IMG/VR virus record: IMGVR_UViG_3300042910_000004
Reading direction: 5' to 3' (one strand)
Source of the DNA: a virus
DNA length: 42,328 nt
This document shows positions 9,749 to 42,328 of this stretch, piece after piece (the stretch's first letter is position 1; every line of letters begins with the position of its first letter). Below the pieces are notes generated by a model. The model was not told where the DNA came from. It searched no databases and saw only the letters and a program-made list of their open reading frames with translations. Position numbers and translations under genes: made by a program.

Positions 9749-10660
9749 ATGCGGAAGGAAAAAATCATCTCGCAGTTGGCTGCGGAGTTAATCAATCTTG
9801 CGGACGAAATCGTTCCTCGTATCTCCCCTGTATCACTTAAGCAAGCAAAATATGGAAAGGGGGATGAGGAAGTTTTCGTCCTGCTTTTGAGCGACTTTCA
9901 AGTTGGTATCAAGACTTCGACTTACAACACCTCCGTATTCGAGGAGCGGTTCTCCCGCTTGACCCGTAACGTTCTCAAAGTTCTTGCTCTTCATCGTCGG
10001 TCCCACCCAGTCAAGAAGTTGGTTGTCTTTTTGCTGGGGGATTTGGTCCATAACGAGGAGGTGGCTCGCTTCCTGTCTATCGATGAGCTGGATGTAGTGG
10101 TCCACGAACAAGTCTTCCAATACGCCATCCCCGTCCTACAAGGCTTCTTCGTCGAGATGCTACGAAACTTCGAGAAAGTCGAGGTTTATTGCGTTCGTGG
10201 AAACCACGGCCAGTTCTCGAAGCTACACGCAACTACCACCAACATTGACGACATCATCTACCACTTCCTTCGTGCTTCGTTCTCCCGTGAGAAGCGTATC
10301 AAGTTCCACATCGCAGAAACCTTCTATCAAATCGCTAAAGTCTATCGATGGAAGTTCCTCCTCGTTCACGGAGATACTATCCGAATGCACTATCAAATCC
10401 CCTGGTATGGTATCACCACTCGAGTGATGCGCTGGCAAAACTCCATCGAAGATTTCGACTTCGCATGCATTGGTCACTTCCACTCCTTCTCCGTTCTTGA
10501 TTGGGGAGGGAAAACCATCGTTATCAACGGAACCTTCCTTTCCGACGATGATTGGAGCAAGCAACGTCTCGGCCTAACATCTTCAGTGTGTCAGGTCCTT
10601 CTCGGAGTTCATCCAAAGCGTGGTATCTCCTTCATCCGCAAAATCTTTCTGACGAAATGA
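9749..10660 (+). CDS. Calcineurin-like metallophosphoesterase
   Basis: Motifs LLLSDFQVG, LLGDLVHNEE, VRGNHG, LVHGD and GHFH. Canonical SD taAGGAGatgagaaaATG. C-ending codon bias unlike the rest of the phage. Confidence 0.85.
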   Translation: MRKEKIISQLAAELINLADEIVPRISPVSLKQAKYGKGDEEVFVLLLSDFQVGIKTSTYNTSVFEERFSRLTRNVLKVLALHRRSHPVKKLVVFLLGDLVHNEEVARFLSIDELDVVVHEQVFQYAIPVLQGFFVEMLRNFEKVEVYCVRGNHGQFSKLHATTTNIDDIIYHFLRASFSREKRIKFHIAETFYQIAKVYRWKFLLVHGDTIRMHYQIPWYGITTRVMRWQNSIEDFDFACIGHFHSFSVLDWGGKTIVINGTFLSDDDWSKQRLGLTSSVCQVLLGVHPKRGISFIRKIFLTK

Positions 10661-10673
10661 AAGGAGGTGTGCT

Positions 10674-11324
10674 ATGTTCTCCCAAACTATCAAGCCTATC
10701 TTCCGTATCAATAAGCGTCAGAAGCGCCGAAAGCAGTTTAAGGCTGCTCCTCCTATCAAGGCATATCAGTTCATCCCTCCACTTGTCCGCAGTTTCGTCT
10801 GTTCTGTCATCGTTGAAACTGAAAAAGAATACGCAGTTGGAGGGGGATGCCTTACTACAATCGGGCTTCTGACTGCCGCTCATAACCTTGAAGGTGACAT
10901 CAAAAACATCTATGCTGACTTCTGCATCAACGAGTTCGTTGGTTTCACCATCCAGCTTCGAGAAGCAATCTGCTTTAAGGCTCTTGACCTTGCTGTCTTC
11001 GAAGCTCCGCAGCTAACCTTCCCAGGCTTAAAGCCAGCAAAGGTAATCATCGACAACGTCAATGAAATCAAGAAAATCATCTCCGAAAATCCCATCTACT
11101 CCTTTGGATGTCCTCAAGGCATCTTTGGCTTGACCTGGGAAGCGCTTCCCGTGTATCTCGACAACAGCTGTATCTATACTATCGGGTTTGGCTGGTTCGG
11201 AGTTTCAGGGGGCCCCATCTTTGCAGTAATCGACAATGAGCCAATCGTTTTAGCAATCAACTCCGAGCTGGCTTTCCCGACAATGACTCTGCTTTCCAGG
11301 CTAATCAACCTGAAGGCATCGTAG
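10674..11324 (+). CDS. Trypsin-like (S1/chymotrypsin-fold) serine protease
   Basis: LLTAAHNL (His), LDLAVF (Asp), GVSGGPIF (Ser). Canonical SD aAAGGAGGtgtgctATG. Confidence 0.8.
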   Translation: MFSQTIKPIFRINKRQKRRKQFKAAPPIKAYQFIPPLVRSFVCSVIVETEKEYAVGGGCLTTIGLLTAAHNLEGDIKNIYADFCINEFVGFTIQLREAICFKALDLAVFEAPQLTFPGLKPAKVIIDNVNEIKKIISENPIYSFGCPQGIFGLTWEALPVYLDNSCIYTIGFGWFGVSGGPIFAVIDNEPIVLAINSELAFPTMTLLSRLINLKAS

Positions 11325-12299: not shown

Positions 12300-12611
12300 T
12301 TACTTCTTAATTCGACCTAAAACTCCGTTATAAAGGCTTCTTTTGCCTAAATCCCAAAGTCCACTTGTATAAAGACCAATAAAAACACCAGAGGCAAAAG
12401 CCAATAAAGGATTTTCAATATAGCCGTAAAAATAAGACCAAAGAGCCAAACTAACTCCCCAAAAAACCGAAACTAATGGGGCATAATCATTAAAATTCTG
12501 TATTCTCTTACTTAAAATTCTTTTAACTACTTCTGTCATTCCCATAACTAAAAGGACAACGAAATGAAAACTTAAAAGTTGGTTTGCAGTTAATACCCAG
12601 CTTCCTTCCAT
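12300..12611 (-). CDS. Holin
   Basis: 103 aa with about three hydrophobic helices and a charged C-terminus; lies near the endolysin in the lysis cassette. Confidence 0.7.
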   Translation of the reverse strand: MEGSWVLTANQLLSFHFVVLLVMGMTEVVKRILSKRIQNFNDYAPLVSVFWGVSLALWSYFYGYIENPLLAFASGVFIGLYTSGLWDLGKRSLYNGVLGRIKK

Positions 12612-12639
12612 TTTTTAGATTTTTTTAATCAACGACCTT

Positions 12640-12774
12640 TTAAAATTGAAAATCCATTTCGCTAAATTCTTCTTCTTCGCTTTCTCTTTCTTCTTCTAAT
12701 TCTTCTTCTTCAGTCTCAACGGGTTTTTCTTCAAGATTTACATCTTCTTCAAAAAGGTATTCTGTATCTACCAT
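12640..12774 (-). CDS. Possible 44-aa extremely acidic peptide (MVDTEYLFEEDVNLEEKPVETEEEELEEERESEEEEFSEMDFQF)
   Basis: Hand-translated. Cassette upstream (cgacc 12797-12801) and another cassette right after its stop. Confidence 0.4.
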   Translation of the reverse strand: MVDTEYLFEEDVNLEEKPVETEEEELEEERESEEEEFSEMDFQF

Positions 12775-12792
12775 TTTTCTAAAATTTTTTAA

Positions 12793-14910
12793 TTATCGAC
12801 CAAAAATTTCATTAAATTTTTTAATCGTATTCAAATCTGCTGTTCCAGTTACTAATAACCCATAATTTTTTTGAAAATCTCTAACGGCTTGACGGGTAAT
12901 GCCTCCATAATAGCCCGTACACTCTTGATTAGCAGGAAAATATCCTAACCATTGAAGACCAATTTGAAGTTTTACTACTTCTGATCCTCTATCTCCTACA
13001 TTGAGATAATTAGCATTTATAAACATCTTTGGTTTATTAATCTTTTGAGGTTCGTATTTGAAATCAACAAGATAAACTCCCAAAACAACTCCATTTTTAA
13101 ATTGTTCTTCGTTGATAATTCCTAATCCATTAATACCCCAATCATCTCTTCCCCAAGAATTTTGAAAAATTAATGCTTTTTTGCCATTGTAAAGAGTATA
13201 ATCAGTTGCACAGTTATGTACCGCAACATTTTCTGCCATATAAGAATTATCATTTTCAACTTCCAAATTGAAAACTTTTCCGACATATTTTATTTTTTCT
13301 ATCTTTTTTATTCTTTTTAATTCACCTATTTTGTGATAAAAGTTCCTCGTTTTTATTTTATTGGCATATGGGGAAATGAGAAAATCGAATCCTCCACTAC
13401 TTTTAATTCTTCTCGTTATGTTATGGGCTGGTTTTCTATGAAAGACACTATAAACCATATTTAGTTTTTGCAAAATAAGTTGTATCTGTAATGCTAATTT
13501 TTCATCTGAAGTAAAAAGTCTCCAATAAATATTTTGATTTTTATTTCCTATTTGAATGGAACCATCTCCATCTATCCATCCTTCTAATAATGACCTTAGG
13601 ACATCTTTAGGTGAGTTAAAAATAATTCTATAATCTAATCTTTTTTTGTTGGGCCTTCCAGCAATTTTAGCAAACCAATTCGCTATTTTTGTGCTATAAA
13701 AAATAACCTGAACTGCTTTATTCCTTGGGGAATAATAAAATTTGGGTTCTAAATTAAATTTACTTTTCATTATTCGAACAACCTTCTCTATTATTTTACT
13801 ATCTTTTTCTCTATTTAAAGAAAATCTAACAGCAGCAAATCCTTTATAATACTTTCCGTTCACAAAATTCCTTTTCAGATTACCATCTGCCAAATAAAGA
13901 CCTACTAAATAAGCAATATCTTCATCAAATAAAGCATAATTTCTATCTAATTGGGTTATTGGAGAAGTAAAATTTGCCAACAAAAAGTCTTTTATTTTCA
14001 AATCTTCGGCTTTTTTCCACATAAATCCCCTTGAGATAGCATAATCCTTTCTTACATATTGAGAACCATTTATAACATAAAAAGGATGTTCTGGGGTTGC
14101 TAAAATGGGTCTTATTTGATTCTTGGCATATATTTTAAATAAATAACCCTCATAATCTCTTTCTAAAACCCTACTAACCCTTTGCCATCTTCCTTTGTGC
14201 GTTAAAACATAATCACCTGCTTTAATTTCAGTTATTTTTTTATAACCATTCTTTGTGAGAATTAATGTATCTGGATGGAAACAAATAGCATGTCCGAATA
14301 TTCCGTTTTTATCCAAAACTACTTCAGGTTTAGAAAATCCTCCTTGATTAAATCTCACCCCTAAAAGAATTCCCTTTTTTGTTTGCTCTATTATCCCAGC
14401 AATTACATCAATATCGAGTGGAAGAAAAACATAAGAATTTGCCTTATAAATTTGTGCTACCCATCTAACATTAGGAGTTTCATCATCTCTCCTTCTCATT
14501 GCGTTTTCATTTAATCCTATAGATGGCATCTGCTGTTCTAAACAGGTTCCTTCTTTTCTGGCAATTTCTAAAGCCTGTAGATAATACATTCCTCCATCTG
14601 GTTCAACATATCCACGAGAATAAATAAATCTTGCAGATAAAATCTCAAATTTCCCCTCTTCTAAATAGTTTTCTATCCCAAGAGCAAGAGCAAGTGAATG
14701 AGCAACGCAACTTCCCGATGTTGATTGGTTTCTAATTGGTTCAAATTTTCTCCATTCTGATGGTTTTTTCTCAATCCAATTAGGAGATGGATATGATTTA
14801 AAGATTTCTTCTGTGTGATAATTTCTTTCGTCAAGTTGTTCTCTTTCATCTCCAACCCATCCATAACCAAATTGCTCTTTTCTCAAAAATCTTTTGAAAA
14901 ATTTCCACAT
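12793..14910 (-). CDS. Endolysin: papain-like (C1) cysteine peptidase plus PG_binding_1 domain, interrupted by an intein
   Basis: QSTSGSCVAHS (Cys motif); GHAI (His motif); NSWGRDDWG after the intein; C-terminal GDRGSEVVKLQIGLQWLGY...ITRQAVRDFQ. Holin close by. Confidence 0.8.
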   Translation of the reverse strand: MWKFFKRFLRKEQFGYGWVGDEREQLDERNYHTEEIFKSYPSPNWIEKKPSEWRKFEPIRNQSTSGSCVAHSLALALGIENYLEEGKFEILSARFIYSRGYVEPDGGMYYLQALEIARKEGTCLEQQMPSIGLNENAMRRRDDETPNVRWVAQIYKANSYVFLPLDIDVIAGIIEQTKKGILLGVRFNQGGFSKPEVVLDKNGIFGHAICFHPDTLILTKNGYKKITEIKAGDYVLTHKGRWQRVSRVLERDYEGYLFKIYAKNQIRPILATPEHPFYVINGSQYVRKDYAISRGFMWKKAEDLKIKDFLLANFTSPITQLDRNYALFDEDIAYLVGLYLADGNLKRNFVNGKYYKGFAAVRFSLNREKDSKIIEKVVRIMKSKFNLEPKFYYSPRNKAVQVIFYSTKIANWFAKIAGRPNKKRLDYRIIFNSPKDVLRSLLEGWIDGDGSIQIGNKNQNIYWRLFTSDEKLALQIQLILQKLNMVYSVFHRKPAHNITRRIKSSGGFDFLISPYANKIKTRNFYHKIGELKRIKKIEKIKYVGKVFNLEVENDNSYMAENVAVHNCATDYTLYNGKKALIFQNSWGRDDWGINGLGIINEEQFKNGVVLGVYLVDFKYEPQKINKPKMFINANYLNVGDRGSEVVKLQIGLQWLGYFPANQECTGYYGGITRQAVRDFQKNYGLLVTGTADLNTIKKFNEIFGR
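13213..14283 (-). mobile_element. Intein with LAGLIDADG homing endonuclease (357 aa, residues 210-566 of the lysin ORF)
   Basis: Begins CFHPDTLILT, has TPEH, LVGLYLADGN and LLEGWIDGDGS, and ends NVAVHN followed by a +1 Cys. The codons at both junctions were checked on the sequence. Confidence 0.85.
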
Positions 14911-14931
14911 TATTTAAATTTTACAAATTAT

Positions 14932-15390
14932 TTATTCTTTCTCCAATATTTTCTTTAATTTTAGCAAAAATTCGTCTAAAGCAGAAAAAGATTTTTCTTC
15001 GTTAGAGCTAAAATTAAGATTTCCTAAACCAAAATATTCTTTCACAAATTCAAATCTTTCGGGAATATTGTTTTTGTAACTTCTATTTAAAACCATATCT
15101 AATTGCCAATGAAAACCATTAAAAACAATTTTCTTTGTATTTTCAAATGCTTTTTGAAAGGCTTCTTCTAATGTTTCTCCTGCTCCCGTAACCACTGCTA
15201 CATTATAGTCATAATTGGCAGTTTCTAATCCTTTAGAAGTCTTTTTGACGTCCCATAACCAAATATCTTTGTCAAATCCTTCTGGCAAAATAATATCTTC
15301 TGATTTAATTTTATCTCTAGGTTGCCCAAATACTGCTACTCTAAAAATTCTAAATGAAGCTCCAAATCTTTTACATTCTTTAGGGGTCAT
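14932..15390 (-). CDS. PurD (GARS) C-domain-like protein, second part of a split ATP-grasp enzyme
   Basis: NVAVVTGAGETLEEAFQKAFENTKKIVFNGFHWQLDM parallels PurD GGRVLCVTALGHTVAEAQKRAY...CFCRKDIG. Confidence 0.6.
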   Translation of the reverse strand: MTPKECKRFGASFRIFRVAVFGQPRDKIKSEDIILPEGFDKDIWLWDVKKTSKGLETANYDYNVAVVTGAGETLEEAFQKAFENTKKIVFNGFHWQLDMVLNRSYKNNIPERFEFVKEYFGLGNLNFSSNEEKSFSALDEFLLKLKKILEKE

Positions 15391-16435
15391 AAATATCTTC
15401 TCCCCTCAAAAGTTTTTCAAAATAATAGCCAACAGAAGGAAGGGTAGAAAGTTCGGTAAATAAAGCGTTATAGCCAGGTCTTATACAATACTCAGTAAAA
15501 AAGAAGCCTTTTTTCTTTTTATCATAAATAGTTCCAGCATCCCATATAGTTAATTCATTTTCTCTCAGCATTTCTTTTTCTAAAGGCCTAAGAAAAGCAT
15601 CATAAATTCTTTCCCCCTCTTCTTTGGTAAGCCAAAAAATAACGTCTGCTGTTGCTCCAGTCTGCCCTCCATATCCTCTGTTTCCAGGAGCATAATTTTT
15701 AATTTCAATGTCAATATTCATCCCTCTTACAATTTTGTTGAAACTGATTGCTTCTGGCGTAAATTCTAATATATCAGTTAACTTTTCTTGTAAATCAAAG
15801 CCTTCTGCTTCATAAAGTTTTTTATTCATTTCCAAAGCATTGATAATCTCCAATTTTGCTATTTCTGGTTCATCAGAAATAGGGACAATAGTTGGGGCAT
15901 CTGGATGATTACCTTTTAAAACCCAGCATTTGTCGGTTGCTTCTAAAAATTTTTTTGCCTCTTCTATAGTTTGGAACTCATAATGTTCTTTCTTTGAAAA
16001 TATTTCATACCTTTCTTCAACTAATTTTTGCGATTTTTCCCTATCTTCTTCTAATTCCCAGTCTTCTTTGTGAGGTAATAGTCCCCTAAAGCCTGCCTTT
16101 CTTAATTCTTCAGCATATTGCCACATAAAAGGAAAGTCAAAAATTATAAAGTATCTATCTTTGTTTTTGACTTTAAGCAGAGCATTAAATAATTCTTTAC
16201 CACTTTTTTTATCTAACAAACCATCATAAAGAGACATCCTTTGTTCCTTTTCCTTTTCTTCTTCTCCTTTACCCTCCAAATGATAAAATTGCCCTACATA
16301 GACCTTGTAGCCTTCTTCTTGTAATCTAAAAGCGACAGGTAATCCATGCCCATCATATGTAAATAAGACAAAGATTGGTTCTGGATTTAACAATCTGAGA
16401 TTTATTTGTTGTTTTGTTTGTGTTTCAATTTCCAT
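15380..16435 (-). CDS. PurD-like ATP-grasp protein (N and A domains)
   Basis: CWVLKGNH, EFTPEAISFN, DIEIKNYAPGNRGYGGQTGA and IWDAGTIYDKKKKGFFFTEYCIRPGYN align in order with PurD motifs. Confidence 0.6.
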   Translation of the reverse strand: MEIETQTKQQINLRLLNPEPIFVLFTYDGHGLPVAFRLQEEGYKVYVGQFYHLEGKGEEEKEKEQRMSLYDGLLDKKSGKELFNALLKVKNKDRYFIIFDFPFMWQYAEELRKAGFRGLLPHKEDWELEEDREKSQKLVEERYEIFSKKEHYEFQTIEEAKKFLEATDKCWVLKGNHPDAPTIVPISDEPEIAKLEIINALEMNKKLYEAEGFDLQEKLTDILEFTPEAISFNKIVRGMNIDIEIKNYAPGNRGYGGQTGATADVIFWLTKEEGERIYDAFLRPLEKEMLRENELTIWDAGTIYDKKKKGFFFTEYCIRPGYNALFTELSTLPSVGYYFEKLLRGEDIYDP

Positions 16436-42043: not shown

Positions 42044-42328
42044 AAACCCAAAATTAGAGCAAAAAGCAAAACCTTGTGGCTGAAAATCAAAACCACAAGC
42101 CTAAACTAAACCATAAAAGCTTAAATTTTTCTCGATTTTTCTATCTTTTTTAACCTCATAACTGCAAAAATTAAGAGCCAAAACCCATAAAAAACAGCCT
42201 TTAACCCATAAAAACCCGCAAAGTTCGCAAAATGATTATTTTACGAACTTTAAAAACGAAAAAACAACTAAAAAATCGCAATTTTTGAGCTTTGAAAATT
42301 TAAAAGACTTTTAAATCTTGGGGGAGTA
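42044..42328. repeat. Right copy of exact 285-bp direct terminal repeat
   Basis: Identical to 1-285. Confidence 0.95.

Follow-up and report, generated by a model that had tools for sequence, protein, structure and literature searches.

A class 1 intein at the catalytic histidine motif of a predicted phage endolysin of the papain type

To our knowledge, inteins have been described almost entirely in proteins of replication, repair, nucleotide metabolism and virion assembly. Mobile elements of another kind, group I introns, are known to interrupt lysin genes of Streptococcus thermophilus phages. Such introns are also found in the lysin genes of the Staphylococcus phages K, G1, ISP and A5W (PMC5526547). 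In mycobacteriophages, none of 224 Lysin A genes was found by Payne and Hatfull to be interrupted by an intron or an intein (PMC3314691), and lysins are not mentioned in the main survey of mycobacteriophage inteins (PMC5050341). In our full-text literature searches, no report came up of an intein within an endolysin, a lysin, a peptidoglycan hydrolase or a papain-type peptidase. Here, we describe an intein that lies in frame within the predicted endolysin gene of the virus record IMGVR_UViG_3300042910_000004, a stretch of 42,328 nucleotides (nt) that was analysed as a whole and is called the window below. We consider it highly likely that the element is a canonical selfish homing intein, dispensable to the phage, which splices and spreads by homing.

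The intein and the enzyme it interrupts

The precursor is encoded by one open reading frame (ORF) of 705 amino acids (aa) on the minus strand, in which the following features were located.

12793..14910, minus strand: endolysin precursor ORF with N-extein, intein and C-extein (705 aa, 82 kDa)
14284..14910, minus strand: N-extein, residues 1-209, with oxyanion Gln62, catalytic Cys68 and catalytic His207
14707..14730, minus strand: NQSTSGSC motif of papain type, with catalytic Cys68
14284..14295, minus strand: GHAI, residues 206-209, with catalytic His207, directly before the intein
13213..14283, minus strand: intein, residues 210-566 (357 aa, 42 kDa), made up of a HINT splicing domain and a LAGLIDADG homing endonuclease set into it
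14254..14283, minus strand: intein block A, CFHPDTLILT, residues 210-219; Cys210 is intein residue 1, the N-terminal nucleophile
14086..14097, minus strand: intein block B, TPEH (TxxH), residues 272-275, intein T63 and H66
13879..13908, minus strand: first LAGLIDADG motif, LVGLYLADGN, residues 335-344, catalytic Asp at intein position 133
13558..13590, minus strand: second LAGLIDADG motif, LLEGWIDGDGS, residues 441-451, catalytic Asp at intein position 240
13213..13275, minus strand: intein blocks F and G (VFNLEVENDNSYMA and NVAVHN), ending in His565-Asn566, intein H356 and N357
12796..13212, minus strand: C-extein, residues 567-705, with +1 Cys567, QNSWG and PG_binding_1
13210..13212, minus strand: +1 Cys567, first residue of the C-extein
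13150..13164, minus strand: QNSWG with the catalytic Asn, in the C-extein
12817..12990, minus strand: PG_binding_1 domain (Pfam, 5.9e-16)

Residues 210-566 are a canonical class 1 intein with a nested LAGLIDADG homing endonuclease. Pfam matched Intein_splicing (1.9e-12), LAGLIDADG_3 (9e-13) and Hint_2 (9e-9) in this segment, and two NCBIfam models matched the 705-aa ORF above their cut-offs: intein_Nterm (TIGR01445, 1.7e-8, 35.4 bits against 24.5) and intein_Cterm (TIGR01443, 17.9 bits against 15.6). The profile matches on the segment are far above chance level. The complete class 1 residue set is present (C210, TxxH at 272-275, H565-N566 and C567), with NVAVHN at residues 561-566 and Cys567 as the +1 residue. 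When 17 homologous inteins were aligned (alignment A6), C1, T63, H66, K214, H356 and N357 were invariant, as were both endonuclease aspartates (D133/G134 and D240/G241). These aspartates are the acidic catalytic residues of the two motif helices, LVGLYLADG and LEGWIDGDG. At the level of sequence, the invariant residues support competence for splicing and for endonuclease activity, and the intein is probably active. No tRNA or Rfam elements hinting at an intron instead of an intein were found.

The structural model gave the same picture as the profiles. The AlphaFold 2 (AF2) model of the intein segment, with a mean predicted local distance difference test score (pLDDT) of 87.5, was matched by Foldseek to PI-SceI (4e-18), the TliVMA intein (1e-16), PI-PfuI (4e-15) and PI-PkoII, and the middle of the model matched I-DmoI and I-Tsp061I at 1e-6, plus the endonuclease domain of PI-SceI, in keeping with the alpha-beta-beta-alpha-beta-beta-alpha fold of LAGLIDADG homing endonucleases. 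A profile of 17 related inteins matched PI-PkoII at 2e-22. A HINT fold was thus recognized in the segment by Pfam, NCBIfam and the AF2 model.

Removal of the intein in silico yielded a 348-aa papain-type (C1) peptidase with a C-terminal PG_binding_1 domain. The Pfam match to Peptidase_C1 on this spliced product was continuous over the junction (residues 53-243) and scored 31.8 bits, compared to 21.5 bits for the unspliced ORF and a cut-off of 20.7. The catalytic Gln, Cys, His and Asn occur in this order on a papain fold, and Q62, C68 and H207 were invariant in 79 homologues. The lysin family profile matched procerain B and cathepsin K with E-values of 1e-17 to 3e-16, and the alignment of the profiles placed "ygHAv" of the lysin on the catalytic His and "SWG" on the Asn-Ser-Trp-Gly of these two enzymes. 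The AF2 model of the spliced lysin (pLDDT 92.9) matched xylellain (2.8e-13) and procathepsin K by Foldseek. Proenzymes are among its best Foldseek matches, namely xylellain with its N-terminal region and procathepsins K, L and B, so lysin residues 1-50 (14760-14910) might act like a propeptide over the active site.

The insertion point lies between Ile209 and Cys567, two residues past the catalytic His207. In the AF2 model, His207 and the splice junction 209/210 are inside one beta-strand (residues 205-217). The unspliced precursor has Cys68 and His207 on one side of the intein and the catalytic Asn of QNSWG on the other. The precursor should be inactive because the intein separates these residues, and, judging from the geometry of the junction, splicing is very probably needed for lysin activity. 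A first-pass annotation of this DNA had placed an intein at 13213-14283 (residues 210-566), directly after GHAI as the His motif of the peptidase, and had named the N-terminal Cys, TPEH, two LAGLIDADG motifs, VAVHN and the +1 Cys as its hallmarks. The coordinates agree exactly with the ORF map, each hallmark was located in the ORF, and the role of GHAI follows from the invariance of H207 in the 79 homologues and its alignment with the cathepsin K and procerain His. The Hint and LAGLIDADG profile searches that it had suggested as a check gave the Pfam and NCBIfam matches above. It was also sound to reason that the lysin is inactive before splicing, with catalytic residues parted inside the His207 strand of the model. 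The anticipated products of about 40 kDa (spliced) and about 41 kDa (excised) compare with 40.0 kDa for the enzyme and 42.0 kDa for the intein, as computed from the sequence.

Intein-less alleles and related inteins

A search with the spliced sequence returned 84 relatives, nearly all of 335-365 aa, of which the best was 92% identical and exactly 348 aa long. About 80 intein-less homologues of 346-350 aa were collinear with the spliced product. Empty alleles read GHA[VI]-x-x-[TV]D where the window reads GHAI/intein/CATD (slashes mark junctions), and their +1 position is V, T, C or N. The same absence was seen in DNA. An intein-less 43-kb JGI contig (L001) was 87% identical to the window in nt over nearly its whole length, and the alignment broke only at window positions 14288/13209, leaving a clean 1071-nt difference. 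An IMG/VR genome with 86% nt identity (L166) showed the same break at window 14284/13209, and both are syntenic with the window. The empty site of L001 reads GGACACGCAGTG/GTAGCAACTGAT, also given as ...TACGGACACGCAGTG/GTAGCAACTGATTAC..., and seven further related loci were likewise intein-less at the His site. The segment is thus an in-frame insertion that is missing in orthologues with collinear flanks. Intein-less homologues had been proposed in the first pass as a means of confirming the insertion point, and the approximately 80 proteins together with the DNA breaks of L001 and L166 now do so. The scan of genomes for relatives used a 20-sequence lysin alignment; an IMG/VR scan with the single protein gave no match, and the exact 705-aa protein was not in the assembly index.

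The intein was present in 2 of about 20 close alleles and absent from 18 of 19 close lysin clusters. The second intein-bearing allele (L002/P0019) is from an independent assembly, on a 3-kb contig binned with Candidatus Calescibacterium, and has the same insertion site. Its lysin region is 84% identical to that of the window in nt, and its intein is 81% identical in aa. Between the window and L002, the N-extein showed 83.6% nt identity and a ratio of nonsynonymous to synonymous substitution rates (omega) of 0.07, compared to 87.1% and an omega of 0.10 between the window and the intein-less L001. The first 219 codons of the intein were 84.2% identical in nt to those of L002, with an omega of 0.13. 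Within this part, codons 1-110, which belong to the splicing domain, had 87.0% identity and an omega of 0.17, and codons 111-219, which belong to the endonuclease, had 81.3% and 0.10. Since the N-extein of the intein-less L001 is closer to the window than that of the intein-bearing L002, the distribution of the intein is patchy and does not follow extein relatedness. Its absence from the closest relatives (92% identity for the protein, 87% for the genome) indicates that it is dispensable. An element that is dispensable, patchy and constrained in both of its domains has the profile expected of a homing intein.

An exhaustive search of 1.84 billion cluster representatives was conducted with the precursor, and the junctions were then inspected. 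In at least 16 further, divergent clusters of papain-like peptidases, the catalytic His motif was immediately followed by a homologous LAGLIDADG intein (27-46% identity). The junctions at this site were as follows.

H/C: P0115, P0130 (+1 Ser), P0231, P0189, P0174
HA/C: P0085, P0110, P0221
HA[VIM]/C: window, P0019, P0107, P0108, P0145, P0213, P0244, P0154, P0216
HY/C: P0123

The closest non-allelic intein, P0085, was 44% identical over its full length and follows the catalytic His in another papain-like lysin, which is quite unlike that of the window, has an SH3 domain and is encoded on an unrelated 37-kb phage-like contig. The extein of P0189 matched Transglut_core in Pfam, a transglutaminase-like cysteine protease, and here a homologous intein directly follows the GH motif. 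P0174 also has a homologous intein after a GH motif; its extein had no Pfam match and is similar to that of P0189 by eye. The His-site inteins occupy three adjacent codon registers (H/C, HA/C and HAV/C) with constant spacing from His to GY after splicing, and two proteins as closely related as P0085 and P0108 already differ in register. These shifts could be due either to "sliding" by one codon or to indels that compensate each other. P0107 (1023 aa) appears to hold two inteins, one ending VLTGQ/S with a C-terminal Gln and the other at the His site.

Inteins were also found at the other two catalytic motifs. In the family of C1 plus PG_binding_1 lysins to which the window's enzyme belongs, L170:1819-3723 (IMGVR_UViG_3300005857_000014) carries a 328-aa LAGLIDADG intein, 29% identical to that of the window, between Ser67 and the catalytic Cys68 (NQSTSAS/CFHGS...LAVHN/CVAHS). 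Because this intein stands directly before Cys68, the catalytic Cys doubles as the +1 nucleophile of the intein. Besides L170, at least nine other clusters of papain-like peptidases have related inteins at the Cys site, including P0109, P0114, P0156 and P0165 in the same lysin family and P0100-P0104 in more divergent peptidases. At the Asn motif, P0131 (L172:2120-4303, ENA ERZ27315285 k141_17037), a lysin of the same family with 43% identity, has an insertion right after NSWG (DNSWG/CYDENTEILT...AVWSGN/SDWGFNG) that ends in Gly-Asn, not His-Asn. Pfam confirmed only LAGLIDADG_3 in this insertion, which was called an intein from its junction motifs by eye. Inteins at the Cys, His and, with P0131, Asn motifs make all three catalytic motifs intein targets in uncultured phages. 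Invasion of these lysin motifs therefore recurs in uncultured relatives, with a new host and new insertion sites and with canonical mechanics.

For cultured phages, 50,697 phage records were searched with the precursor by tblastn; matches were obtained through the intein part only, and this lysin was present in none of the records. The nearest inteins of cultured phages were 22-29% identical and reside in DNA methyltransferases, NrdD, thymidylate synthase and hypothetical proteins. Scans of metagenomes and IMG/VR with the intein alignment found approximately 155 distant inteins (21-31% identity) and no close copy; short N-terminal patterns were used in these two scans, which makes them non-exhaustive for close alleles. 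None of the host ORFs of the approximately 155 inteins matched the lysin profile, and no wall hydrolase was found in a Pfam sample of 59 of these hosts, where the families were DNA_methylase (33), thymidylate synthase (11), Phage_Mu_F (6), portal families (5), DHFR (4), ribonucleotide reductase (1) and terminase (1). A lysis enzyme had been regarded in the first-pass annotation as an unusual host for an intein. The literature searched and the approximately 155 related inteins bear this out, but the case is not unique, since many uncultured relatives have been invaded.

Proposed homing and the question of lysis timing

For a homing intein in this gene, the following course is proposed. The 82-kDa precursor would be made late in infection. 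Cys210 would perform an N-S acyl shift, Cys567 would take over the acyl group by trans-thioesterification, and Asn566 would cyclise with the assistance of His565. This would release the 42-kDa intein and a ligated, active 40-kDa lysin reading ...GHAI-CATD..., which would wait for the holin as any cytoplasmic endolysin does. Acting as an endonuclease, the freed intein or the precursor would cut the intein-less allele of a co-infecting related phage at the GHA codons, and repair of the cut allele would copy the intein in. The location at a catalytic motif would then reflect the conservation of that sequence, in which imprecise deletion is impossible, and not a regulation of lysis by the intein.

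Several observations weigh against this proposal. Synonymous divergence (dS) between the window and L002 is nearly as high in the intein (0.70) as in the extein (0.95), so there is no sign of very recent transfer. No co-conversion tract was found at the junction in this comparison, as 10 of the 45 nt just upstream differ. The patchy distribution could also have arisen by loss, through recombination with empty alleles, and not by gain. Block F has Asn (VFNLEV, NDNSY) where many inteins carry Asp or His, although this Asn is common to the related inteins and is therefore probably tolerated. Also, splicing and DNA cleavage are both deduced from sequence.

Another possible explanation is that the intein is an adaptive conditional switch: Cys210, Cys567 or Cys68 would make splicing responsive to temperature or redox state, and the timing of lysis would thereby be tuned. 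In favour of this, the enzyme should be active only after splicing, as the catalytic triad is divided by the insertion, and cysteines occupy the nucleophile positions at both junctions. The relatives come from thermophile-associated bins (KatS3mg096 and Candidatus Calescibacterium metagenome-assembled genomes, MAGs), and the intein is under purifying selection, which is equally expected where an element must splice to spare its carrier. Insertion into catalytic motifs is preferred by inteins in general and need not point to regulation. In canonical holin-endolysin lysis, moreover, the holin is the clock, and how much lysin is present does not set the timing. Inteins whose splicing depends on conditions are on record from other systems, as in the account of mycobacterial DnaB in PMC6195587. 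A regulatory intein would be retained across its lineage, but this one occurs in only 2 of about 20 close alleles and is missing from the nearest genomes; with 18 of the 19 close lysin clusters and the most similar genomes lacking it, lysis works without the intein. The intact endonuclease motifs indicate selfish homing instead. We therefore consider a conditional switch unlikely. The first-pass suggestion that lysis timing might be coupled to redox or temperature found no support, as the intein is optional, its endonuclease is kept and omega is approximately 0.13.

A broader form of this idea is that, in papain-type lysins of phages, inteins at the Cys, His and Asn motifs are more than parasites and serve as post-translational safety catches, which would keep the lysin inert until splicing that depends on temperature or redox state has taken place and would add a second, holin-independent checkpoint to lysis. 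If this were true, the Cys-site inteins would use the enzyme's own catalytic Cys as a splicing nucleophile. We regard it as equally doubtful.

A decayed element, which either fails to splice and disables the lysin or has a dead endonuclease and persists as a fixed, immobile remnant, is less probable still. The lack of a visible, very recent transfer and the Asn substitutions in block F would fit such decay, and the part of the literature represented by PMC13619312 describes homing endonucleases as commonly degenerating after fixation. However, the ORF is intact, the essential splicing residues and both LAGLIDADG aspartates are present and invariant in the family, and omega is 0.10-0.17 over both domains. 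Among the Pfam matches listed, no alternative endolysin was detected, so a dead lysin should be lethal, which further counts against decay.

Bacterial intein-like (BIL) domains have no nested endonuclease and no canonical C-terminal Asn with a nucleophilic +1 residue, and they occur in variable regions of non-conserved proteins. That the segment is a native lysin domain or a cleaving-only BIL/Hint domain, as weak, sub-threshold Pfam matches to PT-HINT and Vint might suggest, can be dismissed, since approximately 80 homologues lack precisely this segment, the C-terminal His-Asn, the +1 Cys and the nested LAGLIDADG are hallmarks of inteins and not of BIL domains, and the best structural matches are true inteins. 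The BIL/Hint class was likewise rejected as an assignment on the LAGLIDADG domain, His-Asn, the +1 Cys and the location in a catalytic motif.

Genome context and comparison with known systems

Bases 1-285 of the window are identical to 42044-42328, and the window is therefore a closed assembly (or has terminal redundancy) with a complete genome of approximately 42,043 bp. Its genes include a large terminase, a capsid protein, tail proteins, a primase/helicase and a DNA methyltransferase, the last an ordinary N6_N4_Mtase without an intein. One feature adjoins the interrupted gene.

12300..12611, minus strand: holin of 103 aa, downstream of the endolysin (PHROG phrog_1299, 2.3e-8)

The order of endolysin and holin is the same in L001. 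Pfam was applied to 38 of the 45 listed ORFs, and no second lysin domain was detected in the 37 ORFs of at least 100 aa other than the lysin, among the matches listed (25 of 27 families). The adjoining holin and the lack of another detected lysin domain suggest that the interrupted gene is the phage's endolysin in a normal lysis cassette. With a catalytic domain, a wall-binding domain, a neighbouring holin and a phage genome around it, the protein has a predicted muralytic role and is the only recognisable endolysin of this complete 42-kb tailed-phage genome. The relatives were binned with hot-spring-type MAGs (KatS3mg096 and Candidatus Calescibacterium), and a thermal origin of the phage is suggested by these bins.

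Other differences were noted around the cassette. Between the lysin and the holin, 12612-12792 (minus strand) contains a very acidic 40-codon ORF (MVDTEYLFEEDVNLEEKPVETEEEELEEERESEEEEFSEMDFQF), and L001 has a called 40-aa gene there. Where the window has two overlapping ORFs of 351 aa and 152 aa (14932-16435, minus strand), L001 has a single ORF of 496 aa, whose protein has no family match. The change of frame falls at GACCCCTAAAG near 15385, and one extra C seems to be present in the window at this point, as deduced from the frame shift against the L001 protein (...YDPKECKRF...). This could stem from an error in sequencing, from a genuine frameshift mutation or from programmed slippage. Just upstream of its lysin, L001 has an extra 2.77-kb block of four genes (L001:7121-9892, opposite window 14923-14946), one of which matches Pfam Gp80. 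This block is missing from the window and from L166 and represents a second indel polymorphism beside the lysis cassette. Window positions 10001-11000 have a GC content of 0.48, compared to approximately 0.33 elsewhere in the genome, and may be a recent acquisition; the stretch spans the ORF 9749-10660 (Metallophos-like in L001) and part of the ORF 10674-11324.

That related inteins occupy the Cys, His and Asn motifs within a single family of phage lysins widens the known host range of inteins, which would mildly surprise specialists in inteins and in phage lysis. These inteins support the view that invasion depends on a conserved active site in a gene that is exchanged at co-infection, and not on a DNA-related function. 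The precursor would be a naturally self-activating lysin, and the window and L001 form a natural pair, with and without the intein, in which the fitness effect of an intein in a late gene and homing between phages could be studied. If the source is thermophilic, the intein and its endonuclease could serve as heat-stable tools, and the intein may offer a compact endonuclease.

Compared to known enzymes, the spliced lysin has the fold and the catalytic Gln, Cys, His and Asn motifs of xylellain, cathepsin K and procerain B. It differs from them in its identity of only about 20%, in its fusion to PG_binding_1 and in its place within the lysis cassette of a phage, and from this fusion and location it is presumably a peptidoglycan endopeptidase and not a general protease. 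The intein resembles PI-SceI (VMA1), TliVMA/PhoVMA, PI-PfuI and PI-PkoII in having a double-LAGLIDADG endonuclease set into a HINT domain, in its blocks A, B, F and G, and in the arrangement of Cys1, His-Asn and +1 Cys. Foldseek E-values with these solved inteins were 4e-18 to 9e-14 and TM-scores 0.6-0.7, at an identity of just 12-16%. Their hosts are V-ATPase, ribonucleotide reductase and DNA polymerase, whereas the host here is a phage cell-wall peptidase. At 357 aa, compared to 361-537 residues in the matched chains, the intein is compact, and the large additional region with which PI-SceI recognizes DNA may therefore be missing from it.

Among phage inteins, those of P1 Dmt, the Lactobacillus phage Nyseid methyltransferase, Lactococcus phage 949 NrdD and Aeromonas phage PS1 ThyA are 25-29% identical over the full length. 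Like the intein of the window, they are LAGLIDADG inteins of full length that lie at conserved motifs, but all of their hosts are genes of nucleotide or DNA metabolism and not of a wall peptidase. The Mycobacterium smegmatis DnaB intein, described in PMC6195587 as a sensor of oxidative stress, is similar in that it lies at a functional site and its splicing gates the host protein, and cysteine nucleophiles might in principle sense redox state. It differs from the intein of the window, which gives no sign of conditional splicing and is optional among close relatives. The group I introns of the staphylococcal phages are comparable as homing-type mobile elements in an endolysin gene that must be spliced out before an active enzyme is made. 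Those introns are removed as RNA, whereas the element described here is translated and would be removed at the level of the protein.

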